64,000 nt of DNA from an uncultured delta proteobacterium. Lineage in GTDB: Bacteria; Desulfobacterota; Binatia; Binatales; Binataceae. The notes under the pieces were generated by a model. The model had not been told where the DNA came from and ran no database searches. It saw only the letters and a list, made by a program, of their open reading frames with translations. This document shows, piece by piece, positions 3,218-16,745 of this stretch; position 1 is the stretch's first letter; every line of letters begins with the position of its first letter. A program made the translations under genes and the position numbers. The DNA lies in contig CAVQEQ010000004.1 of assembly GCA_963711565.1 (NCBI GenBank), positions 320,001-384,000 on the forward strand, written 5' to 3'.

Positions 3218-5439
3218 GCGAGCGTCCCGTTTCGCTTGCGGGAGAGCCGAAAGCCGATGTCGAGCAGGCCCGCGCGTTCGGTCTTACGCCCGACGAGTTT
3301 CGCAAGATCGAAGAGATCATCGGCCGCACGCCGACCTACACCGAGCTCGGCGTTTTCTCCGTGATGTGGTCGGAGCATTGCTCGTACAAATCGTCGCGGC
3401 GTCATCTGCGGATGCTGCCGTCGAAGAGCGAACTGGTCGTGCAGGGGCCGGGCGAGAACGCCGGCGCAATCAACGTCGGCGACGGCTGGGCCGCCGTCTT
3501 CAAAATCGAAAGCCACAACCATCCGTCGTTCGTCGAGCCCTACCAGGGCGCGGCGACCGGCGTCGGCGGAATCCTGCGCGACATTTTCACGATGGGCGCG
3601 CGGCCGGTCGCGAGCATGAACTCGCTCAAGTTCGGCAGCTTCGACCATCCGCGCACGCGCTACCTGCTCGGCGGCGTGGTCGGCGGCATCGGCGGTTACG
3701 GCAACTGTGTGGGCGTGCCGACCGTCGCCGGCGAGGTGATGTTCGACGCCGCCTACAACGCAAACATCCTCGTCAACGCGTTTTGCCTCGGGCTGGTGCG
3801 CAAGGGCGAGATGATGAGCGCGAAGGCGCGCGGCGTCGGCAACCCCGTTCTTTACGTTGGCTCTGCGACGGGACGAGACGGGATTCACGGCGCGTCGATG
3901 GCGTCGGCGGAGTTCGACAAGGAGAGCGAAGCCAAGCGTCCGGCGGTGCAGGTCGGCGATCCGTTCACCGAGAAACTATTGATCGAGGCGTGCCTCGAAG
4001 CCGGCAAGACCGGCGCGATTGTCGCTATCCAGGACATGGGCGCGGCTGGCCTCACGTCGTCGTCGAGCGAGATGCCGTCGCATGGCGGGCTGGGGATCGA
4101 ACTCGATCTCGACAAGGTGCCGCTGCGCGAGGCGAATCTGACGCCCTACGAAATCCTGCTCTCCGAATCGCAGGAGCGGATGCTGATCGTCGCCGAGCGC
4201 GGGCGCGAGGCGGAGCTGCAGGCGGTCTTCGAGAAGTGGGACCTGCACGCGGTGGTTATCGGGCGCATTACCGACGACCAGCGATGGCGCGCCCGATGGC
4301 ACGGGCAGGTCGTCGCGGACATTCCAATCGGCGCGCTCGCCGATGACGCGCCGGTATATGATCGTCCAGCGGCGCCGCCGAAGATTCAGCCATCCGCCAA
4401 AACATCGACCGCTAAACATCCTGAGACCTCGAAAGCCCTGCGCGCGCTGCTCGACAGTCCCAACGTCGCGTCGAAGAAGTGGGTGTATCGGCAATACGAT
4501 TCGATCGTGCAGAGCAATACGGTGCTGGGCCCTGGCAGTGACGCGGCCGTGCTGCGAATCAAGAATTCGCGGCGCGCGATGGCGCTCAAAGTCGATTCGA
4601 ATCCGCGCGCGTGCGCGCTCGACCCTTATCTCGGCGCGATCGGCGTCGTCTGCGAAGCAGCGCGCAACGTCGCGTGCGCCGGGGCGCGTCCGGTGGGAAT
4701 CACCAATTGCCTCAACTACGGCAATCCCGAACGGCCCGAGGTGATGTGGCAGTTTATCCGCGGCGTCGAGGGCTTGCGCGACGCGTCGCTCGCGTTCGGC
4801 GCGCCGGTGGTCAGCGGCAACGTGAGCTTTTACAACGAAACCGAAGGCCACGCGATTCCGCCGACGCCAACGATTGCCGTGCTGGGCGTGATGATCGACG
4901 TGGCTAAACACGTCACGCAGTTTTTCAAGAACCCCGGCGACGTAATCGCATTGGTTCGCACCGCAATGCCTTCCTTGGCCGCGAGCGAGTATTCGGCCCT
5001 CTTCGGAATCGACGGCGGGAGCCTCAATCCGATTGACCTGGCGCTGGAATCCGCCCTTATCGAGGGGTTGGTTGAAGGCAGTGAACAGGGGCTGATAAGA
5101 TCGGCTCACGATATCGCCGAGGGCGGGCTTGCGGTGGCATTGGCCGAAGCCTGTTTCAATCCGCGGGCGATTCTGGGAGCCGAAGTTTTGCTTGGGCGAG
5201 CTGGAAACGCTGACGCGGTTTTTTTCGGTGAAGGTGCTTCAACCGTGATTTTGTCCGTCGCTCCAGGCGACGTGGCCCGCGTCGAGAAATTATTTGCGGG
5301 CCACGGGTTGGAGTTTGCGGTTGTCGGAAAAGTGATCGCCGATCCGCGGCTCAAGCTCGGGTCGCTCGACGAAAGCGTTTCCGAATTGCAGCGAATTTAC
5401 GAAGACGCGATTCCAGGGAGGCTCAGAAGCGATGACTGA
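3214..5439 (+). CDS. purL: FGAM synthase subunit PurL (small type)
   Basis: [51 protein letters not shown]. Confidence 0.97.
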
Positions 5440-6911
5440 AGAAGATTCGGTCCTTGCGGTCGAAGCAGTCGAAGAATCGCCACTCAACGTCTTCCACGAG
5501 GAGTGCGGCGTGTTCGGCGTTTACCGCCATCCCGAAGCCGCCAACCTCGCCTACCTCGGTCTCTACGCGCAGCAGCATCGCGGGCAGGAGTCGGCGGGTA
5601 TCGTCTCGTCCAACGGCAAGTCGCTCATCTCGCATCGCGGGATGGGCCTGGTCGCCGATGTTTTCAACAACACAATCATCGAGGCGCTCGAAGGCACCAG
5701 CGCAATTGGGCACAACCGCTACTCAACCACCGGCTCGACGACGATCGGCAACTGCCAGCCGCTGGTGGTCGAGTACGCGCGCGGCGGGCTGGCGCTCGCG
5801 CATAACGGCAACCTGGTAAATTTCACCGAACTGCGCGAACGGCTCGAGTTCGACGGGCTCGATTTTCCAGTCGTCGTCGGACAGCGAGGTGATGATTCAT
5901 CTGATCGCGGCGTCGCACGCGCCCACCCTGCCGGAGCGTGTCGCCGAAGCATTGGCGCAAGTGCGCGGCGCGTATTCGCTGGTGGTGCTGACCGAAGATT
6001 CGTTGATCGCGGTGCGCGATCCGCACGGCTTCCGGCCGCTGGTGCTAGGCAACCTCAACGGTGCGACCATCGTGGCGTCCGAGACCTGCGCGCTGGATTT
6101 GGTGCGCGCCGAATATGTTCGCGAGATCAATCCCGGCGAGATGATCGTCGTCGATGAAGGCGGGCTGCGCTCGATGAGTCCGTTCGCGCATGCGCCGACC
6201 AAGCGATGCATCTTCGAGTACGTCTATTTCTCGCGGCCCGACAGCCAGGTTTACAGCCGCAACGTGTATCAAGTTCGCAAGCAGCATGGCCGCGCGCTCG
6301 CGCGCGAGGCGCCGGCCGAGGCGGACATCGTCGTGCCCGTGCCAGATTCGGGCACGCCCGCCGCGCTCGGCTACGCCGAAGAATCGGGAATCCCGTTCGA
6401 GATGGGTCTCGTGCGCAGCCATTACGTCGGCCGCACGTTTATCGAGCCGCGCTCGTCGATTCGCCATTTTGGCGTGAAGATCAAATTCAACCCGGTGGCG
6501 GAATTGCTGCGCGGCAAGCGAATCGTGCTGATCGAAGACTCACTGGTGCGCGGCACCACGCTCAGCAAAGTGATCCCGATGCTGCGGCAGGCGGGCGCGC
6601 GCGAGGTTCACATGCGCATCGCGGCGCCTCCCACCACCAACTCATGTTTCTACGGAATCGACACGCCCACGCGCGAGGAACTGCTGGCGTCGTCGCATTC
6701 GATCGAAGAGATCCGCCGCTATATCACTGCCGACTCGCTCGCCTACCTGAGTTGGGATGGGCTGTACTCGTTCAACGGCGAGAGCCGCGAGGGATTTTGC
6801 GACGCGTGCTTCACCGGCAATTACCCGGTCGAGATTCCGCGCGACACCACGCCCGCGCAGTTGCATCTTTTTCTCGCCAATGAGGACGGGTTGAAAGCGG
6901 ATCGGCGCTAG
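5432..6911 (+). CDS. purF: Amidophosphoribosyltransferase, frameshifted at ~5855-5857 (sequence error or pseudogene)
   Basis: N-half has [28 protein letters not shown]; C-half has [30 protein letters not shown]. Removing one G from GACGGGCTCG restores [13 protein letters not shown]. Confidence 0.93.
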
Positions 6912-6947: not shown

Positions 6948-7787
6948 CTACGATTCGCAGGTGGCGATGTCCTCGATGAATTCTTTCATCGGCCGCTTCG
7001 ACACCAGGATGCAGATAAAGCCGCCCCGCGGCGGGTAGCTCAGGCAGATGCTGTATCCCTTGTACTCGTAGTAATGATGGATCCCAACTTCCTGCATCTC
7101 GCCGTCAGGCGGCTGCAGCCCGTGCGACTTCATGTAAGTGCACAGGATCGTCCCCATGTCGCCGCGATAGAAGGTGTAAGCGACCGAGGTCCCATCCGCC
7201 AGCCGATCGATCCGTCCGCCCATCAGCTTGTAGCCGACCGGCCGAAAGTTCCACAGGAATCCCGGCAGGTTGTGATCGATGTAGGCGTCCGAAAGGTCGG
7301 CGGGCAGCGTCGATTTGACGTTGGGCTCAAAGCGCTGGGCGAAGGTGTCGTAGTGCTGGATTGCTACGTCGAACGGAGGGATTGCCTGCGCCGGGGGCGG
7401 GCCGCCGACACCATGCAGTATCACGAACACGAAGACCGCGGCCGCGGCGATTGCCACCGGCGCCCACATTCGCGCGCGGCGAATCGAATACCACGGCGCG
7501 CGATCCGCGCCGGCCGAGCGATCGCTTCCGCGTGTCCCTGACTTTGAGGCGCCAGCCGCATCGACAGCGTCGAGCGCGGCGAGGATCGATCCCCGCACTA
7601 TCGCCGGCGTCTTGCGCATCGCGGCGCGCTCGCGCAGCAGCGCCTTGACCGCGCGCTCCTCGGCAAAGCGTGCGCGACAATTGACGCATCCCGCCAGATG
7701 CTCCTCGGCCTCGCGCAACTCTGCCGCGCTCAACTCGCCGTCAACATGAGCTGACAGGTACTTCTCGATGTAGGTGGCGCAATCCAC
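6948..7787 (-). CDS. Membrane-anchored zinc-binding anti-sigma factor (ZAS/zf-HC2, TM helix, extracytoplasmic domain)
   Basis: N-terminal LSAHVDGELS...EEHLAGCVNC (HxxxCxxC), central hydrophobic helix; directly downstream of the ECF sigma gene. Confidence 0.88.
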   Translation of the reverse strand: MDCATYIEKYLSAHVDGELSAAELREAEEHLAGCVNCRARFAEERAVKALLRERAAMRKTPAIVRGSILAALDAVDAAGASKSGTRGSDRSAGADRAPWYSIRRARMWAPVAIAAAAVFVFVILHGVGGPPPAQAIPPFDVAIQHYDTFAQRFEPNVKSTLPADLSDAYIDHNLPGFLWNFRPVGYKLMGGRIDRLADGTSVAYTFYRGDMGTILCTYMKSHGLQPPDGEMQEVGIHHYYEYKGYSICLSYPPRGGFICILVSKRPMKEFIEDIATCES

Positions 7788-7839
7788 TTTCTTTATCGTG
7801 CTCTTCTCGCTTCACTCCAACCGTCAGGCTTAGCCGGTG

Positions 7840-8418
7840 TCAAGACCGTATTATTCCATGCTCTTTGGCGAAGCTCGTTAGCGCCTCGCGCAGCATCGCG
7901 CGTCCCCGCGACACCCGCGATTTTACGGTACCGATTGGTATGTCGAGAACCCCCGAAACCTCCTGGTAGCTTAGTTCTTGTACATCGACGAGCAGAATCG
8001 CTTCGCGGAATTCCCCCGGCAGGCTCGCCAGCGCCGTCTCGACCTCACCCTCCATCCCTTGTCCCGAGAGCAAAGCCTCGGGATTCGATCCCGCCGGATC
8101 GACGCGCAGGCTTTCGCCCTCGACCTTGCGCTCGAACTCCTCGGCCGACGAGGCCGGCTGCTCGCGCGAGGACTTGCGATAGCCGTTGCGAAAGTTGTTG
8201 AACAGGATGGTGAGCATCCATGCGCGGCAATTCGTTCCGCTCTCGAACTGATGAAAGAAACGGTACGCACGCAGCACCGTCTCCTGCAGCAAATCGTTGG
8301 CGTCGTCGGGATTGCGCGCCAGCCGGATCGCCATCGTGTACAACGAGTCGAGATGAGGCAACGCCTCGTCTTCGAATCGCTTGCGCCGATCCGCGCCGGT
8401 GCCGCTTTTGTCCGCCAT
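7840..8418 (-). CDS. ECF RNA polymerase sigma factor (SigR/SigH-like)
   Basis: FEDEALPHLDSLY, DANDLLQET, FESGTNCRAW, SYQEVSGVLDIPIGTVKSRVSRGR. Confidence 0.93.
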   Translation of the reverse strand: MADKSGTGADRRKRFEDEALPHLDSLYTMAIRLARNPDDANDLLQETVLRAYRFFHQFESGTNCRAWMLTILFNNFRNGYRKSSREQPASSAEEFERKVEGESLRVDPAGSNPEALLSGQGMEGEVETALASLPGEFREAILLVDVQELSYQEVSGVLDIPIGTVKSRVSRGRAMLREALTSFAKEHGIIRS

Positions 8419-8470
8419 ATGCCGATTTCAGAACCATAGCATCCCGCGTTAGTGAAATCTTGCATAGCAA

Positions 8471-8496
8471 GGAAATGTTCCCACTAGCTCTTGTTG
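8471..8496 (+). promoter_or_regulatory. Putative ECF-type promoter for the precursor/DUF692 operon
   Basis: GGAAAT-N16-GTTG resembles the SigR/SigH GGAA...GTT consensus. The overlapping GGAAC on the minus strand faces the sigma gene. Confidence 0.5.
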
Positions 8497-8572
8497 GATT
8501 AGTACGTTTAGACTGTTAGAAGCAGCCGTAGTAGTTTCGGCGTGCGAAACAAACAGCCAGGGAGTTACGAAT

Positions 8573-8857
8573 ATGATCAAGACCAAACTCACGGGCGCGA
8601 TGCTGGCGACGGCCGTCGCACTGGTCTTCGCGGGCAATGCTGTTTATGCGGCTGATAGCAGCAACTCGACCGCGGCGCCGTCGCAGGTCAAATGCGTCGG
8701 CGGCAACGCGTGCAAGGGCCAGAGCTTGTGCCAGAGCGCACAGAGTAGCTGCAAGGGCGCAAACGCTTGCAAGGGCAAGGGCTACGTGATGACGCCGACG
8801 GCAAAGGAATGCGTCGCGGCAGGCGGCAAACCGGAGACCGTTACGAACAGCGACTAG
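8573..8857 (+). CDS. Secreted Cys-rich RiPP precursor (bufferin BufA2-like)
   Basis: Sec signal ending AVYA; core CVGGNACKGQSLCQSAQSSCKGANACKGKG...EC with 6 Cys; immediately upstream of DUF692. Confidence 0.85.
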   Translation: MIKTKLTGAMLATAVALVFAGNAVYAADSSNSTAAPSQVKCVGGNACKGQSLCQSAQSSCKGANACKGKGYVMTPTAKECVAAGGKPETVTNSD

Positions 8858-8870
8858 GCGCGGTCGCAAG

Positions 8871-9743
8871 ATGAAACGCTCCGATTTTCCAATGCTCGGT
8901 TACGGCGTCGGGCTAAGACGTCAGCACTACAGCCACGTCCTCGAGACTCGTCCCAGGGTCGATTGGTTCGAGGTCGTCTCAGAAAATTTCATGGTCGAGG
9001 GCGGGCGCGCGCTCGAAGTGCTCGAAGGGGTGCGTGCCAACTATCCTATCGCTGTGCATGGCGTGTCGATGTCGATTGGGTCCACCGACCCGCTGAATCG
9101 CGACTACCTGCGGCAACTGCGCGACCTCGCGCACCGCTTCGAGCCGGCCTGGATTTCGGATCACCTGTGCTGGACGGGAGTGGGCGGCCGCAATCTTCAC
9201 GACCTGCTCCCGCTGCCATACACCGAGGAGGCTATCCGCCACGTCACCGCGCGAATCCGCAATGTGCAGGAGATACTGGAACGGCCGATCCTCATCGAGA
9301 ATGTCTCCAGCTACATGGCGTTCGCCGATTCGACGATGACCGAATGGGAATTCATTTCGGCGATCGCGGACGAAGCCGACTGCGGAATCCTGCTCGACAT
9401 CAACAATATCTTCGTCAGCGCCTTCAATCATCGCTTCGACGCCAATGACTACATCGACGCGGTGCCGGCCGAGCGCGTCGTGCAGTACCATCTCGCCGGG
9501 CATAGCGATCACGGCACTTACCTCCTCGATACCCACGACCATCCCGTACGTGACGAAGTGTGGGCGCTCTATGAGCGCGCGGCGCGACGCTTCGGCGCGG
9601 TCTCGGCGCTCGTCGAATGGGACGACAACATCCCGGAGTTCGCGGAGCTCGCCGATACCGCGGATCGCGCGCGCGATATTTTCAATGCCGACGCATCTCA
9701 ACAAACTCGAAAGCCTGCTCTATCGGCTGATCACCGCGCCTAA
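8871..9743 (+). CDS. DUF692 multinuclear non-heme iron oxidative enzyme (MNIO, BufB-like)
   Basis: GVGLR, WFEVVSENF, HGVSMSIG, SDHLCW, LLPLP, ENVSSY, LLDINN, HLAGH, DTHD, EWD. Confidence 0.95.
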   Translation: MKRSDFPMLGYGVGLRRQHYSHVLETRPRVDWFEVVSENFMVEGGRALEVLEGVRANYPIAVHGVSMSIGSTDPLNRDYLRQLRDLAHRFEPAWISDHLCWTGVGGRNLHDLLPLPYTEEAIRHVTARIRNVQEILERPILIENVSSYMAFADSTMTEWEFISAIADEADCGILLDINNIFVSAFNHRFDANDYIDAVPAERVVQYHLAGHSDHGTYLLDTHDHPVRDEVWALYERAARRFGAVSALVEWDDNIPEFAELADTADRARDIFNADASQQTRKPALSADHRA

Positions 9744-10515
9744 CGGCGTCGCCGAAGGACTCGCCGCCGAGCGCACGCTCGGCGCCGCCGGTCTCGACGC
9801 GATCGTGCTCGGCGACGATCGGCTGTCGGCGGAAGCTCGCGTCAACATTTACGCGAACATGTATTTCTACCGCATCCTCGACGCGCTCAAGGAGGATTTC
9901 CCCGCGACGCTCGCGGTCCTCGGCAATGACAATTTTCACAACCTCGTCACCGGCTACATTCTCGAATACCCACCGACCGAACCGTCGATTTCCTTTTGCG
10001 GAAGTCATCTCGCCGACTATCTGCGCGATCACCCGCTGCCCGACGGCGCGCCGTTCATCGCGGATCTCGCGCGGCTCGAACGCGCGACCGTCGAGATATT
10101 TCAAGCTGCCGACGCACCCGCGCTTGAGTCTGACGCGGTACGTGCAATTGCACCTGCAGACTGGCCTGCCATGAAGCTGACGATTCATCCGTCGGCGCAG
10201 ATACTCGCGCTCGATTGGCGAGTCTCGGATGTGTTGCGCGCAGTCGAGGAGCAGCGCAAATGGAAGGCGGTGGAGCAGGGCGCCGTGAGAGTCCTCGTAT
10301 GGCGACGCGACGCGCGCGTTTTCTACCGCGATCTCGAACCGGCGGAAGCCGACGCACTCGAAGCAGCCTCGCACAACGCGACCTTCGCAGAAATCTGCGA
10401 AGTCATCGCAGCCGCCGACATCGACGATCCCGTCGCAGCGATGAATCAAATGCTCGCGCGCTGGCTCTCCGACCGCCTGCTTACCATCCAGCCCTCGCCC
10501 CTGAAAGCAAAGTAG
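9685..10515 (+). CDS. DUF2063 MNIO partner protein (BufC-like)
   Basis: RVNIYANMY...LKEDFPA...LG...F and DLARLE motifs; follows DUF692. Confidence 0.88.
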   Translation: MPTHLNKLESLLYRLITAPNGVAEGLAAERTLGAAGLDAIVLGDDRLSAEARVNIYANMYFYRILDALKEDFPATLAVLGNDNFHNLVTGYILEYPPTEPSISFCGSHLADYLRDHPLPDGAPFIADLARLERATVEIFQAADAPALESDAVRAIAPADWPAMKLTIHPSAQILALDWRVSDVLRAVEEQRKWKAVEQGAVRVLVWRRDARVFYRDLEPAEADALEAASHNATFAEICEVIAAADIDDPVAAMNQMLARWLSDRLLTIQPSPLKAK

Positions 10516-10543: not shown

Positions 10544-10568
10544 CTGGGTGCAGGGGTCACCCCCTGCC
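10544..10568 (+). repeat. Repeat family A, partial copy (first hairpin only)
   Basis: CTGGGTGCAGGGGTCACCCCCTGCC. Confidence 0.8.
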
Positions 10569-10676
10569 GCCCGCCGCGCAGGCGATTATTCTCTGCTCCG
10601 GATTCCTCCGCTTTGAGATGATCTTTGCCGGCCCCGCGGCTATAAGAATTGTTGAGCGCACTACGCGCCTCAATTC

Positions 10677-11792
10677 ATGGCGGCAAATCCCAAGGTCACC
10701 GGTGATGCTATCAGCATCGAACGGCCTACCAGCCGAGAACAGTTGGATGAATTCGCGCGCCTGCCATTCCAGGTTTATGGCGGACGCGACGCATGGTGGC
10801 CGCCCGACGTGCAGAACGAGATCGATCTGCTGTCGCGCCGCAGCCTGCTCTCGACCCATCTCGAAGTGACTCCCTTCTGCGCGCGCCGTGTGGGGCGCCT
10901 CGTCGCCCGCGTCAGCGCGGTGATCAATCGCCGCTATATCGAACATTGGAACGAGCAGCTCGGCCAGCTGATTCAATTCGAGGCGCTCGAAGGCGAGGAC
11001 GTTGCTATCGCCGCGATGCTCGACGAAGCGCTGCAGCTGCTGCGCGAACGCGGGATGCGCGCCGTGCGCAGCGGCTTCGCGGCGTTTCTCGATTATCCGT
11101 ATGCGATCGACAACTACGACTCGTTGCCGTCGTTCCTGCTCCGTGGAAATCCCGCGTCGTACCATCGCTACTTCAAGGAGGCGGGCTTCGTCACCGAAAA
11201 AGGGCAGGTCGATTACACCGCGCCGTTCACGCCGGAAATCCTCGTGCGCTATCGCCGGATGACCGACGCTGCCGCCGCGGCCGGCGTCGCGATTCAAAGC
11301 TGGCGCGAGTACGGATTTCTGGCCGCGATCGACGCGTGGACCGACGTGACCAACGCGGCGTTCGATCGCCATTGGGGATGGAATCCCGTGACGCGCGCTG
11401 AGGTGCGCCCGATGCTCACGTCGCTGTGGGAAACTCCCGTCGCCGACCTCTCGATGCTCGCGACCATCGACGGCGAGTGCGTCGGCGCCGTCTTCTCCGT
11501 GCCGGATCTCAGCCCCGCGCTGGCCCGCGTGCGTCGAGGTGTTCGCCTCGATCCCGAACGCGGCGGCGGCACCCGCGGCGCGCTCATCAATATCGGAGTC
11601 GTCGATCGTGCGCGCGGACGCGGTGTGGCGCTCGCGATGGCGGCGCGATCGTTCCTCGCGATGGCGCGGCGCAAGATGCGCTTCGCCGGCTACACGCTCG
11701 TTCTCGACGACAACTGGCCCTCGCGCCGCACGGCGCTTAGCCTGGGCGCGCAGGTCACCGGCAACTTCGTCACCTACCGCCGCGATCTGTAG
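10677..11792 (+). CDS. GNAT-fold protein (YghO-like)
   Basis: FARLPFQVY..WWPP, ARVSAVIN, NPASYHRYF and a C-terminal RARGRGVA acetyl-CoA motif. Confidence 0.65.
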   Translation: MAANPKVTGDAISIERPTSREQLDEFARLPFQVYGGRDAWWPPDVQNEIDLLSRRSLLSTHLEVTPFCARRVGRLVARVSAVINRRYIEHWNEQLGQLIQFEALEGEDVAIAAMLDEALQLLRERGMRAVRSGFAAFLDYPYAIDNYDSLPSFLLRGNPASYHRYFKEAGFVTEKGQVDYTAPFTPEILVRYRRMTDAAAAAGVAIQSWREYGFLAAIDAWTDVTNAAFDRHWGWNPVTRAEVRPMLTSLWETPVADLSMLATIDGECVGAVFSVPDLSPALARVRRGVRLDPERGGGTRGALINIGVVDRARGRGVALAMAARSFLAMARRKMRFAGYTLVLDDNWPSRRTALSLGAQVTGNFVTYRRDL

Positions 11793-12856: not shown

Positions 12857-15736
12857 ATGAATCGAGACGACCGCAAGCCTCGCAAGCCACCCGGTATCAG
12901 CCGTCGCTCATTCATCAAGGGCGCCGGTGCGGTCGCTGCCGCCGCCGGTCTGGTGCGGGTGCGGCCCGCGTCCGCCGACGAGAAGCTGCTTCCCGTTGGC
13001 GTCGTCGAGCAACTTGGCCCCAACGCTTCGACGATCGAACTGAATATCAACGGCAAGACGGCGACGCTCGAAATCGAGCCGCGCGTCACTCTACTGCGCG
13101 CGCTGCGCGAACATCTCGGACTGACAGGCACGAAGCTCGTATGCGATCGCGGCGCGTGCGGCGCATGCACCGTGCATCTCGACAGCAAACCCGTCACCTC
13201 GTGCATGGTGCTGGCGATCGACGCGCGCGGACACCAGGTCACGACGATTGAAGGGCTCGGCACGCCCTCCAATATGCATCCGGTGCAGGCTGCATTCGTC
13301 GAAGAGGATGCGCAGCAGTGCGGTTTCTGCACGCCTGGGATGGTGATGTCGGTCGCCGCCGCGCTCGAGCGCAATCCGTCCGCGACGACCGACGAAATCA
13401 AGCGCGCGACCGCCGGCAACACCTGCCGATGCGGTACTTACCCGCACGTCTTCGCGGCCGCGCTCAAAGCCGCCCGGCCCGAAACCGCCAAATCCGCGCG
13501 TGCCACCGCCGCGACGAAGGACGTTCTGATGTCGCGACGCGTCACCCTCAACCTCGGCTTCCAGGGCAACACTCAAGACGTAACCGTCGTCATCCCCGAC
13601 GACGAGCCGACTCCGTGGGATTGGGGCGACCGCCTGTCCGTCGTTGGCAAGCCCACCCCGCGCGTCGATGGACCCCTGAAGGCGACCGGTGCCGCGCACT
13701 ACACCTACGATATCGAATTGCCCGGCATGCTCTACGGCGCGATCCTGCGCAGCCCCTGGCCGCACGCGCGGATTCGCGACATCGATCTGTCCGCCGCGCA
13801 GCATCTTGCCGGCGTGCGCGCCGTGCTTGCGCTTGACGATCGTGAAGTCCGCTTCGCCGGACAGGAAGTCGCCGCCGTCGCCGCGCTCAGTTCCGACATC
13901 GCCGCCGACGCGCTCAAGTTGATCAAGGTTGATTACGAAACCCTGCCGTTCGTGGTCGATATGGACGCGGCGATGGCGGATTCCGCGCCGCGCGTCTTCG
14001 GAATCGGTTCCAACGTCGGCAAGACTTCGAAGTCGAGCATCGGCGACGTGCCGCGCGGCCTCGAGGTCGCTACGAACACGATCGAGGCCACCTACACGAC
14101 CGCTGTGCAGACCCATGTATGCCTCGAGACGCACGGCGCGGTCGCGAGCTTCAACGCGGCCGGCGACCAGCTAACCGTCTGGTGCTCGACCCAGGGCGTC
14201 TTTTCCGCGCGCGACGATCTGGCAGTGTACTTCAGCCTGCCGCCCGACAGCGTGCGCGTCGTCTGCGAGTACCTTGGCGGCGGCTTCGGCTCGAAATTCG
14301 GCGCGACTCCGGAAATGATCATCGCCGCGCGGCTGGCCAGGGCGGCCAGCGTGCCGGTCAAGGTAATGCTTCCGCGCGGTGACGAGAGTCGCTCGACAGG
14401 CAACCGTCCGAACTCGGAGCAAAAGGTCAAGCTCGGCGTCGATCGCGACGGCAAGCTGACCGCGATTGATCTCGTGACGCGCGGCAGCGGCGGGATTGGC
14501 GGCGGTGCGAGCAGCGGCGGCCCGTTCAAGTCAATTTACAAATGCGCGAATATCCGGATTCAGGAAACCAACATCTATACGAACGCGGGACCGTCGTCAC
14601 CGATGCGCGCGCCCGGATGGCCGCAGGGATGCTTCGTGCTGGAACTCGCGATGGACGAGATGGCGCGCAAGGCTGGAATCGATCGCCTCGAGTTCCGCCG
14701 CCGCAACAGCGACAATCCGGTGCGCGCAGCCGAATACGAAATCGGCGCGCGCGCGTTCGGATGGGCCGAAAAAAACGAGACGGCGAAATCGAGTGGACCG
14801 ATCAAGCGCGGCGTCGGCGTCGCGTCCGCCGAATGGCACGCGGTCGGAGTGTCGGGCCCCGAGGCGCAGGTGATCGCGCATCGCGACGGCAGCGTCGAGG
14901 TCCGCGTCGGCACGCAGGATATCGGCACCGGCACGCGCACGGTCCTCGCGATCATCGCGGCCGAGGAACTCGGCTTGCCGGTGAGCCGCGTGAAATCGGA
15001 AATCGGCGATACGCGATTTCTTTTTTCAGTGCCGAGCGGCGGCAGTCTCAGCGCGCCGTCCAATTCGCCCGCTGTGCGCCAGGCCGCGGCGCATCTCAAG
15101 GACAAGCTGTTTCGGATCGCCGCGCCGATGCTTGGCGCCGAACCCAGCGACCTCGAAGCTGCCAACGAAACGATCCGCGTGCGCACTAATCCTTCGCGCG
15201 CGATTGCATTCACCGACGTGTGCAGGCGAATTCCCGGCGATTCGATTTCCGCGCAGGGCGAGCGCGTCCCCAACTACGGCGGCTTTCGCACCGACCAGGC
15301 CGGATGCCAGTTCGCCGAAGTCGAAGTCGATACCGAGACCGGAATCGTGCGCGTTACACACGTCGTCGCCGTGCACGACGCTGGCCGCATCGTCGATCCG
15401 CTGACTGCGCGCAGCCAGGTCAATGGCGGCATCCTGATGGGAATCGGCTACGCGCTGTTCGAGGATCGCCGGATGGACCCGGAGCTCGGCATCATGGTGA
15501 ATCCGACGATGGACGACTACAAGCTGCTCGGCGCACTCGACGTGCCGCAAATCGACGTGACGTTCTTCGAGGTCGCCAACGGGATCACGAATACCGGCGT
15601 GATGGGCCTCGGCGAAGTGTCGCACGTCGCCAGCACGGCCGCGGTCGCATGCGCAGTGTACAACGCGATCGGCGTGCCTGTGCGTTCGCTGCCGATGACG
15701 CCGGATCGCGTGCTCGCGGCCCTGGGGCACGCGTGA
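12857..15736 (+). CDS. Xanthine dehydrogenase-family molybdoenzyme: TAT signal, 2x[2Fe-2S] domain and Mo-binding domain (PaoA+PaoC-like, apparently fused)
   Basis: SRRSFIK; CDRGACGACTV; QCGFCTPG; CRCGTY; GGGFGSK; MRAPG; DIGTG; QVNGG; GLGE. Confidence 0.9.
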   Translation: MNRDDRKPRKPPGISRRSFIKGAGAVAAAAGLVRVRPASADEKLLPVGVVEQLGPNASTIELNINGKTATLEIEPRVTLLRALREHLGLTGTKLVCDRGACGACTVHLDSKPVTSCMVLAIDARGHQVTTIEGLGTPSNMHPVQAAFVEEDAQQCGFCTPGMVMSVAAALERNPSATTDEIKRATAGNTCRCGTYPHVFAAALKAARPETAKSARATAATKDVLMSRRVTLNLGFQGNTQDVTVVIPDDEPTPWDWGDRLSVVGKPTPRVDGPLKATGAAHYTYDIELPGMLYGAILRSPWPHARIRDIDLSAAQHLAGVRAVLALDDREVRFAGQEVAAVAALSSDIAADALKLIKVDYETLPFVVDMDAAMADSAPRVFGIGSNVGKTSKSSIGDVPRGLEVATNTIEATYTTAVQTHVCLETHGAVASFNAAGDQLTVWCSTQGVFSARDDLAVYFSLPPDSVRVVCEYLGGGFGSKFGATPEMIIAARLARAASVPVKVMLPRGDESRSTGNRPNSEQKVKLGVDRDGKLTAIDLVTRGSGGIGGGASSGGPFKSIYKCANIRIQETNIYTNAGPSSPMRAPGWPQGCFVLELAMDEMARKAGIDRLEFRRRNSDNPVRAAEYEIGARAFGWAEKNETAKSSGPIKRGVGVASAEWHAVGVSGPEAQVIAHRDGSVEVRVGTQDIGTGTRTVLAIIAAEELGLPVSRVKSEIGDTRFLFSVPSGGSLSAPSNSPAVRQAAAHLKDKLFRIAAPMLGAEPSDLEAANETIRVRTNPSRAIAFTDVCRRIPGDSISAQGERVPNYGGFRTDQAGCQFAEVEVDTETGIVRVTHVVAVHDAGRIVDPLTARSQVNGGILMGIGYALFEDRRMDPELGIMVNPTMDDYKLLGALDVPQIDVTFFEVANGITNTGVMGLGEVSHVASTAAVACAVYNAIGVPVRSLPMTPDRVLAALGHA

Positions 15737-15752
15737 AGGATTCGGAACCGCG

Positions 15753-16745
15753 ATGAACCGATTCGAAGTGATTACGCCCGCCGACGTTGCAATCGCGTCG
15801 CGCTTACTTGCCGAGAACGGCAACGTCGCGTTCGCGGGCGGTGTCGACGTGATCGATCTGTCGAAGCAAAATATCGTATCGCCGGCCGCACTGGTGAATC
15901 TCAAGGGCCTGAAAGAACTCGACGGAATCGAGCTGCGCCCGTCGGGCGATCTTCGACTCGGCGCGACGGTCAAGCTAAGCGAAGTCAGTGAGCATCCCGC
16001 GATTCGCGCGCGCTTCACCGCGATTGCCGAGGCTGCCGGCGAAGCGGCGACGCCGCAGATTCGCAATCTCGGCACGGTCGGTGGGAATATCCTGCAGCGC
16101 CCGCGATGCTGGTACTTCCGCAATCCCGACGTGAATTGCCTGAAGAAGGGCGGCGACACCTGCTACTCGATCGGCGGCCTCAATCGCTATCACGCGATTC
16201 TCGGCGGCGGCCCGTCGTTCATCGTGCATCCGTCAAATCTCGCGCCCGCGCTGATCGCGATGCGTGCGAGCGCGACGATCGTCGGCCCAAGTGGACAGCG
16301 CAGCGTCGAGCTCGAAAAATTCTTCACACTGCCCGCCGTCGATCCGAAGCGCGAAAATTCTCTCAAGCCCGGCGAGATAATCACCGAAGTGATCGTGCCC
16401 GCGCCGTCTGCTGGCGCGCGCAGCCATTACCTCGAGGCGCGCGAGAAGCAGAGCTTCGACTGGCCGCTGGTCAGCGTCGCGATCGTCCTCGATCGCGCGC
16501 CCGGTGCGAACACTGTCCGCGATGCGCGCGTCGTCATGGGTGCGGTCGCTCCAATCCCGTGGCGATCGCCCGAGGCCGAAGCCGCGCTCAAGAGCGGGCC
16601 GCTCGACGAGTCGCGCGCGCGTGCCGCCGCCGAGGCCGCGCTAAAGGACGCACAGCCGATGTCCGACAACGCGTACAAGGTGGTGATTGCGAAGGTGATC
16701 GTGCGCCGCGCGATCATGAGTGCCGCCGGATTGGAGGCTGCCTGA
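15753..16745 (+). CDS. FAD-binding subunit of the molybdoenzyme (PaoB/YagS-like, with 4Fe-4S Cys motif)
   Basis: AGGVD, ATPQIRNLGTVGGNILQRPRCWYFR, CLKKGGDTC, HPS, GAVAPIPWR, NAYK. Confidence 0.92.
   Translation: MNRFEVITPADVAIASRLLAENGNVAFAGGVDVIDLSKQNIVSPAALVNLKGLKELDGIELRPSGDLRLGATVKLSEVSEHPAIRARFTAIAEAAGEAATPQIRNLGTVGGNILQRPRCWYFRNPDVNCLKKGGDTCYSIGGLNRYHAILGGGPSFIVHPSNLAPALIAMRASATIVGPSGQRSVELEKFFTLPAVDPKRENSLKPGEIITEVIVPAPSAGARSHYLEAREKQSFDWPLVSVAIVLDRAPGANTVRDARVVMGAVAPIPWRSPEAEAALKSGPLDESRARAAAEAALKDAQPMSDNAYKVVIAKVIVRRAIMSAAGLEAA

Follow-up and report, generated by a model that had tools for sequence, protein, structure and literature searches.

Are bufferins induced as copper buffers, or within a program of envelope oxidative repair? 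This question is raised by a five-gene locus from an uncultured delta proteobacterium (class Binatia, family Binataceae), in which a bufferin operon stands back to back with an extracytoplasmic function (ECF) sigma factor and a membrane anti-sigma factor. The locus spans positions 6948..10515 of a 64,000-nucleotide stretch of DNA (assembly GCA_963711565.1, contig CAVQEQ010000004.1, positions 320,001 to 384,000), the whole of which is referred to here as the window. An original prediction, made from the letters of the window, had placed all five genes where we find them and had read them as a possible undescribed variant of a bufferin-like peptide system. Our own explanation, which we hold to be rather likely, is that a standard Buf2 operon lies back to back with a sigma/anti-sigma pair that runs a small envelope oxidative-stress regulon, and that many relatives have bufABC in this regulon, with the window genome probably retaining a weak control of bufABC at most. 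The value of the locus lies in its regulation and not in its peptide: the only worked-out control of a Buf2 system that we found in the literature is SigF/NrsF. A different sigma clade, a defined predicted promoter, natural controls with and without the regulator, and antioxidant co-targets together make the opening question testable.

The bufferin operon

The first gene on the plus strand, bufA2 (8573..8857), encodes a 94-residue precursor that passes the BufA2 model (BUF_6/12Cys, NF050166) with 72 bits against a cut-off of 60. The second, bufB (8871..9743, plus strand), encodes an MNIO (DUF692) protein that passes the bufferin maturase model NF050167 (388 bits, cut-off 310), scores 379 bits with PF05114 and aligns with structure 3BWW at E 4e-50. 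The third, bufC (9685..10515, plus strand), overlaps the end of bufB by 59 nt and encodes a 276-residue DUF2063 partner that passes PF09836 (57 bits, cut-off 27.2); an alternative start at 9445 was dropped because the alignments of relatives begin at residue 1 of the frame from ATG 9685. The HvfC model aligns to the C-terminal part of this partner with 63.5 bits, below its cut-off of 142; with the HvfB and HvfC models the cluster proteins all stay below cut-off, and the EGKCG repeat is not present in the precursor. Because precursor and enzyme both pass the curated BufA2 and BufB cut-offs, the cluster is, as judged by these profile models, a standard Buf2 bufferin operon, bufA2-bufB-bufC.

Much of what had been read from the letters holds at the level of the genes: the putatively secreted precursor with six Cys, NACKG twice and SCKG once, is found in the open reading frame 8573-8857, and Pfam matches and hydropathy confirm DUF692 and DUF2063 in one unit with the ECF sigma factor and the transmembrane anti-sigma factor divergent from it. 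The cluster is of bufferin type, as had been proposed; the idea of an undescribed peptide variant falls, since Buf2 is a described class and its curated cut-offs are passed. The cluster indeed lacks a DoxX gene (two lie elsewhere in the genome). The buf2 operon of Caulobacter is described as three genes without DoxX (PMC11626156, in its account of that operon), and we therefore dropped the absence of DoxX as a distinguishing trait.

The precursor Cys stand at residues 41, 47, 53, 60, 66 and 80, and the six core Cys are present in 18 of 18 aligned precursors. Its N-terminus shows, by eye, a basic-hydrophobic-VYA pattern resembling a Sec signal, ending at V-Y-A26 and common to the relatives. For the Caulobacter Buf2 product, PMC11626156 gives a shift of -18 Da, a CysI-CysVI disulfide and a change of -4.03 Da for each of the four central Cys. 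By analogy with that product, BufB and BufC would oxidize the central Cys 47, 53, 60 and 66 to thiooxazoles, Cys41 and Cys80 would form a disulfide, and Sec export would remove the signal peptide to leave a product that binds copper in the periplasm.

The genome holds two BufA2 genes, and bufB is the only MNIO gene found in it, so that this single enzyme may modify both precursors. The second bufA2 stands alone (G000 C1:937239-939413; L113 1740-3914) and is followed by a Met-rich secreted DUF6799 gene, a cytochrome b561 gene and an MsrP-like molybdoenzyme gene. Six relatives (G009, G013, G020, G003, G021 and G007; L083-L088) carry a second bufA2-bufB-bufC operon behind another motif, TGAAAC-N16-17-CATC/AATC, a pattern that suggests another ECF sigma factor. 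By eye, a DoxX-like gene seems to be divergent from this second operon in two of these genomes.

The divergent sigma and anti-sigma factors

The sigma gene (7840..8418, minus strand) encodes 192 residues and belongs to the SigH/SigR-ECF26 clade. Its best-matching model is SigH_actino (TIGR02947; 156 bits, below the cut-off of 251.55), and its closest solved relative is Mycobacterium tuberculosis SigH (E 8.8e-38). It is the only sigma factor of SigH/ECF26 type found in the genome, where other ECF matches reach at most 32% identity over long matches. The anti-sigma gene (6948..7787, minus strand, GTG start) encodes 279 residues: a zf-HC2 zinc finger (PF13490, 38.9 bits) with ligands C3 and H30xxxC34xxC37, one hydrophobic helix at about 105-127 by hydropathy, and an outer domain of about 150 residues (approximately 137-278) without a Pfam match. 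Neither NrsF (PF06532, for which the Caulobacter control was positive) nor Buf1 was matched in the genome, which is 95% complete.

The zinc finger resembles RsiW more than RsrA. The anti-sigma protein scores 37 bits with the RsrA model TIGR03988, below the cut-off of 62.5, and its zinc region, HLAGCVNC(RAR), has no acidic residues flanking the Cys, as against HFEECSPC in RsrA. The redox sensitivity of RsrA has been tied to the acidic residues E39, E40 and E46, and RsiW is listed as redox-insensitive, in the part of PMC3177212 that compares these proteins. The best solved match of the anti-sigma family profile is the N-domain, that is the zinc domain, of Bacillus subtilis RsiW. That a membrane zinc-binding anti-sigma factor beside a SigH-clade sigma factor is itself a new layout does not hold up, this layout being already known in ECF12s19, ECF26, ECF206 and ECF207. 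The proposal of a non-NrsF regulator tied to the bufferin cluster holds up, given the conserved divergent layout and the promoter motif shared across the class.

Conservation of the linkage

Eighteen of 24 genus relatives carry the anti-sigma gene, and in 17 of these 18 the sigma gene is divergent from buf genes; in the eighteenth (G001) the contig ends there. Sixteen of the 17 divergent loci have bufA, and G017 keeps bufBC only. At that locus (L040 7209-7372) bufB directly follows the promoter, and G017 carries its two bufA2 genes at other sites. The layout extends beyond the genus: in a class-wide draw it was found in 12 of 15 family members of other genera with the anti-sigma gene, two of the 12 loci having bufA alone and three lacking a bufC match. 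Such partial forms beside the sigma pair comprise bufA without bufBC (L257, L261; G202, G435) and bufAB without a bufC match (L260, L265, L266; G427, G477, G483). Outside the family the sigma pair and the buf genes are mostly unlinked, lying within 2-6 kb of each other in G029, G424 and G493. When the anti-sigma profile was run over 301 genomes of the phylum, 6 matched at E 1e-25, and five of the six belong to class Binatia.

The six genus genomes without the anti-sigma gene also lack a close sigma factor (best 32-35%). In four of them (G002, G005, G008 and G014) purF runs into a GNAT gene and the whole module is absent; because the two flanking genes join, this absence is not an assembly gap. 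In G014 and G002 (L175 2520-3480; L177 540-1500) the gap between purF and the GNAT gene holds a secreted DsbA-like thioredoxin gene (CxxC, by eye). G010 and G018 keep bufABC without the sigma pair, and G443 has the pair without buf genes.

The sigma promoter and its predicted regulon

Footprinting across relatives gives GGAAC-N18-RTT as the likely promoter of this sigma factor. Ahead of the sigma gene itself, on the minus strand, GGGAAC (8482-8477) is invariant and is followed, after 18 variable nucleotides, by ATT (8458-8456) in 21 of 21 genus loci, and we take this element (8456..8482) as a predicted autoregulatory ECF promoter. The motif precedes the sigma gene at 10 of 15 family loci of other genera and in five of six distant orthologues, there with a spacing of 17-19 nt and mostly GTT. 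It fits both the SigH consensus GGAAYR-N17-18-GTT (supplement of PMC7826278, in its group descriptions) and the ECF26 motif GGAATA / CGTTTT (as cited in PMC13492112). Nearer to the sigma start lies a predicted extended -10, TG-n-TATGGT (8433..8441, minus strand), conserved in 19 of the 21 intergenic regions of the genus; from it the sigma gene might be transcribed at a basal level and almost without a leader.

The genome was first scanned with a matrix built from sigma-gene promoters alone, and two of its top 45 matches lie 38-51 nt before redox genes; these were picked by function and position, and only these two were followed in relatives. A genome-wide scan with a matrix of 50 training sites, all with 18-nt spacers, gave 297 matches at 11 bits or more, the three best sites scoring 22-25. 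The best-scoring ECF site of the genome (C1:925036, minus strand) precedes a secreted PrxQ/Bcp-like peroxiredoxin gene (L112 2893-3486, minus strand; G000 C1:924395-924985) that has orthologues in 23 of 24 genus relatives. The other site (C1:937938, plus strand) precedes the cytochrome b561 gene and the MsrP-like molybdoenzyme gene after it, just 3' of the second bufA2 and the DUF6799 gene; the motif thus sits between the DUF6799 gene and cytochrome b, and not directly upstream of the second bufA2. The family calls for these redox targets rest on Pfam scores above cut-off, the NCBIfam scores being below.

Both sites track the presence of the sigma factor. At exactly 18 nt, the motif stands before the peroxiredoxin gene in 16 of 18 sigma-bearing genomes versus 0 of 6 sigma-less ones (G020, with no orthologue in the search, was left out), and before the cytochrome b gene at 12 of 17 loci of sigma-bearing genomes versus 0 of 5 of sigma-less genomes. 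Among the six genomes without the sigma factor, three have a 20-nt spacer at the peroxiredoxin site, a fourth has 20 nt together with a changed -10, and two have nothing there. One metatranscriptome was uninformative, with a share of 0.06 in scattered short pieces.

The promoter of bufA

The spacer between the sigma gene and bufA takes two forms in the genus (n=21): 14 are long (226-320 nt) and 7, the window included, are short (133-168 nt). The long spacers carry GGAAY-N18-GTT in nine cases, the same halves 19, 20 and 9 nt apart in one case each, and none in two; in these long forms both halves of the motif are kept and the 18 nt between them diverge. No ECF consensus site precedes bufA in any of the seven short spacers. 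In the window the bufA spacer is shorter by about 100 nt and the -35 half of the site is missing, and because of this short spacer without the -35 half we consider sigma control of bufA to be probably weak or lost here.

The -10 half, GTTTAGAC (8506-8513), survives, in the form GTTTA[G/C]AC in 19 of 21 genus loci. Overlapping it on the plus strand is a putative housekeeping-type promoter, TAGACT (8509-8514)-N17-TAGTTT (8532-8537), so that the conserved stretch as a whole runs from 8506 to 8537. The corresponding pair TAGACW-N17-YAnnnT is found with a spacing of precisely 17 nt in 12 of the 21 loci, including the window (8509-8537), where it is a weak sigma-70 match (7 of 12 positions) that falls below the threshold of a consensus scan and is not listed by it. 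Reading GTTTAGAC as a minus-strand -10 of sigma-E type was rejected, since the nearest GAAC-like hexamer is 19-20 nt away, which is too long. In all seven short-spacer loci 23 nt separate GTTCCC from GTTTAGAC. A phylogeny built on the DNA of both regulator genes (sigma and anti-sigma) at 18 loci, rooted at the midpoint, has only long forms on its early branches and places the short forms within one supported clade, mixed with long forms; the short forms may share one origin.

Beyond the genus the motif is found before bufA, with a spacing of 17-19 nt, at 6 of 12 linked loci of other genera. For bufA-MNIO loci elsewhere in the class, it is present at 8 of 18 loci (8 of 16 genomes, in five families) where the anti-sigma gene occurs, versus 0 of 23 genomes where it was not found, against a background of 3.6-5.4% per 300 nt. 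This count covers part of the 126 BufA2-bearing genomes; it leaves out loci without an adjacent MNIO gene as well as G343, G354 and G400, which have partial anti-sigma matches (one of their three MNIO loci is positive).

The overlapping back-to-back GGAA motifs that had been pointed out at 8471-8482 are present in the sequence, and their minus-strand half is the one invariant in 21 of 21 loci; the plus-strand half is not conserved, and we gave up the notion of a bidirectional GGAA promoter on that ground. Only the window has a plus-strand GGAAA in the register of 8471 (1 of 21), with GGAA shifted by one base in two relatives. As a sigma promoter of bufA this site (GGAAA-N17-GTT, 8471..8495, matrix score 6.0) would be weak at best: it is off-consensus and unconserved, and the conserved bufA site is absent here.

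The outer domain of the anti-sigma factor

An AlphaFold model of the anti-sigma protein (mean predicted local distance difference test score 88, predicted template modeling score 0.58) shows three zinc-domain helices, a disordered linker, the membrane helix and an alpha/beta outer domain. Across 87 homologues the outer-domain Cys are kept to differing degrees: C216 in 75, C259 in 71 and C248 in 54. In the model C216 and C259 fall on strands of the sheet, and 69 of the 87 homologues have Cys at both positions, 10 at neither. Such co-variation is as expected of a disulfide pair, which may be a switch or structural. Among the other residues, H237 is found in 49 and M219 in 18 of the 87; H145, H172, H222, H238 and C277 are poorly conserved, and His residues besides H237 occur in at most 20. 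The extra Cys and His that had been noted in the outer domain are thus there, although as a set they are not widely conserved, only C216, C259 and C248 being well kept. We rejected a His/Cys metal site since the His are not conserved across these homologues.

That the outer domain senses metal or the peptide is not favored either: apart from the unconserved His, the pair occurs without BufA2 and the predicted targets are antioxidant. In family f3 the anti-sigma gene is present in 12 of 14 genomes and BufA2 in none of the 14, and because the sigma/anti-sigma pair is so common there without BufA2, it is not a dedicated peptide sensor. A fold search with the anti-sigma model found no match at Z of at least 8; for the outer domain, MucB/RseB and Mog1/PsbP-like chains came up at Z 5.5-7.0, a similarity that may reflect a common arrangement only. 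A protein atlas search returned unnamed and "anti-sigma fragment" clusters, with DUF3379 at 0.92, and is a lead only. About a dozen proteins of 400-430 residues (P0163, P0168, P0170, P0171, P0177, P0178, P0182, P0185, P0192, P0193, P0196, P0198) carry the helix and outer domain behind a longer N-terminal part and are possibly fusions.

Weighing the explanations

If our explanation is right, the RsiW-like zinc domain would hold the sigma factor at the membrane until a signal outside the cytoplasm, likely a redox change of C216/C259 or unfolding of the outer domain, frees it. In systems of the RsiW type the sigma factor is released by proteolysis (see also PMC5358783), and by analogy release would probably be proteolytic here too. 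The freed sigma factor would then read GGAAC-N18-RTT at its own operon, at the secreted peroxiredoxin gene and at the cytochrome b/MsrP-like pair. In relatives with a long spacer it would also read the site before bufA, which overlaps the housekeeping-type promoter; in the window genome bufABC would likely depend mainly on the housekeeping-type promoter at 8509-8537. More tentatively, and with the odds against it, this may be a class-wide arrangement in Binatia: Buf2 would belong to an undescribed envelope-redox regulon of a SigH/ECF26-clade sigma factor, whose membrane anti-sigma factor would use Cys216-Cys259 as a switch that responds to periplasmic oxidation, with the secreted peroxiredoxin and the MsrP-like system induced alongside. 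In that case oxidative damage to the envelope, and not copper itself, would call for bufferin 2, and single lineages would tune the response in or out by gaining or deleting one promoter.

Several observations weigh against the explanation that we favor. Most of the 297 matches of the genome scan are probably noise; the peroxiredoxin site is absent in two sigma-bearing genomes and the cytochrome b site at five loci. Of the six sigma-less genomes, four seem to form a single lineage; kin are not independent, and for this reason the Fisher P values of 2e-4 to 5e-4 overstate the association. Outside the genus, the motif is missing before bufA in half of the sigma-bearing genomes. The bufA sites themselves have weak matrix scores (0.5-15 bits), and no T-rich extension follows their GGAAC. 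Finally, the nature of the signal is read from the predicted targets only.

With regard to the promoter, we think it rather unlikely that the sigma factor drives bufABC directly in the window genome through the plus-strand site at 8471-8495, as one side of an overlapping bidirectional promoter that replaced the lost ancestral site. That site is the best plus-strand match in the window spacer, it combines GGAA and GTT at the N17-18 spacing that M. tuberculosis SigH tolerates, and the fixed 23 nt of the short loci could reflect a selected geometry. However, GG is found at 8471 in one of the seven short-spacer loci and GTT at its position in three of them; position 5 is C in 50 of 50 training sites, all with 18-nt spacers, where this site has A and N17; it shares bases with the -35 of the promoter on the other strand; and the fixed distance may stem from one inherited deletion, a point that the tree does not settle. 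Very unlikely, to our mind, is that regulator and operon are mere neighbors and that the bufA motif is read by another sigma factor or arises by chance. There is a precedent in Cupriavidus metallidurans, whose divergent rpoQ-rsqA pair is not shown to control gig in the account given in PMC13492112, and the genomes that keep either the operon or the pair alone, as well as the missing consensus site before bufA in the window genome, would agree with it; yet the motif tracks the sigma factor even where the genes are unlinked (the 8/16 versus 0/23 genomes in five families), both halves persist in long-spacer loci around 18 diverged nucleotides, and a second sigma factor of this clade was not found in the genome.

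With regard to the sensor, it is quite unlikely that the outer domain senses copper or mature bufferin as a dedicated metal switch in place of SigF/NrsF. In 23 close homologues neither the three Cys nor H237 nor M219 varies, the Met-rich DUF6799 gene and second bufA2 adjoin one predicted target, NrsF was not found in the genome, and the Caulobacter buf1 and buf2 operons are copper-induced through SigF (PMC11626156, in the part on their regulation). Against this, the His and Met fade in wider homologues (H237 to 49 and M219 to 18 of 87), the sigma pair abounds in family f3 (12/14) where BufA2 is absent (0/14), and the predicted targets with the best conservation, a peroxiredoxin and an MsrP-like enzyme, do not export copper. 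It is also quite improbable that the cytoplasmic zinc finger itself is the sensor, as in RsrA, with thiol oxidation expelling zinc to free the sigma factor and the outer Cys pair being structural only. The sigma factor is nearest to SigH, the promoter is SigH-like, all four zinc ligands are present and the predicted regulon holds enzymes for the repair of thiols and methionine, but HLAGCVNCRAR lacks the acidic flanks of RsrA and resembles RsiW, which PMC3177212 lists as redox-insensitive in that comparison, the RsrA model stops at 37 against 62.5 bits, and the proteins predicted as targets are either exported or set in the membrane.

Neighboring DNA

Next to the anti-sigma gene, purF (window 5432-6911) is in two frames, with a break near 5860, and forms one open frame in most relatives; similar breaks in other genes of the relatives G012, G020, G006 and G004 are seen, and the split is probably due to assembly indels. 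On the other side, 3' of bufC, lies a GC-rich palindromic repeat resembling repetitive extragenic palindromic elements (window 10546-10570), whose 18-nt core occurs six times in the genome. The GNAT-like gene after bufC (window 10677-11792) follows it in most family members and, because it stays when the module is missing, is probably not part of the module. Farther along (window 12857-16745), a fused 2Fe-2S/molybdopterin gene resembling xanthine dehydrogenase is followed by a gene for its FAD subunit, as judged from translation, and is syntenic in several relatives.

Comparison with known systems

The peptide side of this locus closely matches bufA2B2C2 of Caulobacter vibrioides (CCNA_03001-02999): a six-Cys precursor with a Sec signal (here predicted), an MNIO, a DUF2063 protein and no DoxX (PMC11626156, in its description of the operon). 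The regulators differ, since the same description has ECF16 SigF and NrsF encoded beside buf1, with both the buf1 and buf2 operons copper-induced under SigF, and here a sigma factor of the SigH/ECF26 clade and a single-pass zinc-finger anti-sigma factor lie beside buf2. The survey in PMC12452194 reports sigma genes in Buf1 clusters and none in Buf2 clusters, in the portion that covers them, and two of its supplements have no Binatia or zf-HC2 entry in the parts concerned. Six-Cys DUF692 clusters from soil metagenomes are presented without sigma factors in the section of PMC8692599 devoted to them. PMC13097082 speaks in general terms of transcriptional regulators near MNIO clusters, and its table has two Ca. 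Binatus MNIO-partner pairs and no match for zf-HC2 or anti-sigma. Among the matches listed in the ECF supplement of PMC7826278, as far as that excerpt goes, DUF692 appears for ECF16 and ECF285 only. A literature search, to which most subscription journals were closed, found no paper on this regulator in Binatia.

The coupling as such does not open a new category: in Neisseria and Haemophilus, zinc-finger anti-sigma factors are already tied to the repair of methionine and to a cluster of MNIO type. In Neisseria it is sigma-E, paired with the cytoplasmic MseR, a zinc-finger anti-sigma factor (NMB2140-2145; NGO1943-1948), that controls msrAB and an operon, according to the results given in PMC2893595, and the gonococcal counterpart of this operon includes NGO1945, the model MNIO partner protein. 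Haemophilus RpoE2/HrsE controls msrAB, mtsZ and a homologous DoxX cluster (PMC7907618, in its regulon section). These regulons share with the predicted one an autoregulated ECF sigma factor, a zinc-finger anti-sigma factor (shown for MseR), periplasmic methionine-sulfoxide repair and an MNIO-type cluster, to the extent that both papers describe them (PMC2893595, PMC7907618). The present system differs from them in its anti-sigma factor, which has 279 residues and spans the membrane where theirs is small and cytoplasmic, as well as in its divergent genes, its sigma clade and its Buf2 peptide. The peptide class in those regulons is the oxazolin type, not Buf2.

With regard to the sigma factor, the group descriptions of ECF26, ECF206, ECF207 and ECF12s19 in PMC7826278 share with our locus an anti-sigma gene at +1, HxxxCxxC, one membrane helix and a promoter of GGAA...GTT type, and the ECF26 member rpoL of C. 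metallidurans is listed with rslA and yedYZ in the relevant table of PMC13492112. The GGAAY-N17-18-GTT target promoter of core ECF12 is likewise the form that footprinting predicts here. Streptomyces SigR/RsrA and Mycobacterium SigH/RshA, both ECF12, resemble the pair in the closest solved sigma factor, the promoter shape and the oxidative-stress theme; unlike them, our sigma factor falls below the SigH model cut-off and its anti-sigma factor is membrane-bound, with an outer domain and without the acidic flanks of RsrA. In this uncultured lineage from soil, the anti-sigma factor is a compact candidate for a periplasmic thiol sensor. Set beside the Caulobacter, Neisseria and SigR/SigH systems, the locus is a known peptide class with a likely new envelope-redox wiring, one that is probably weakened in the window genome.

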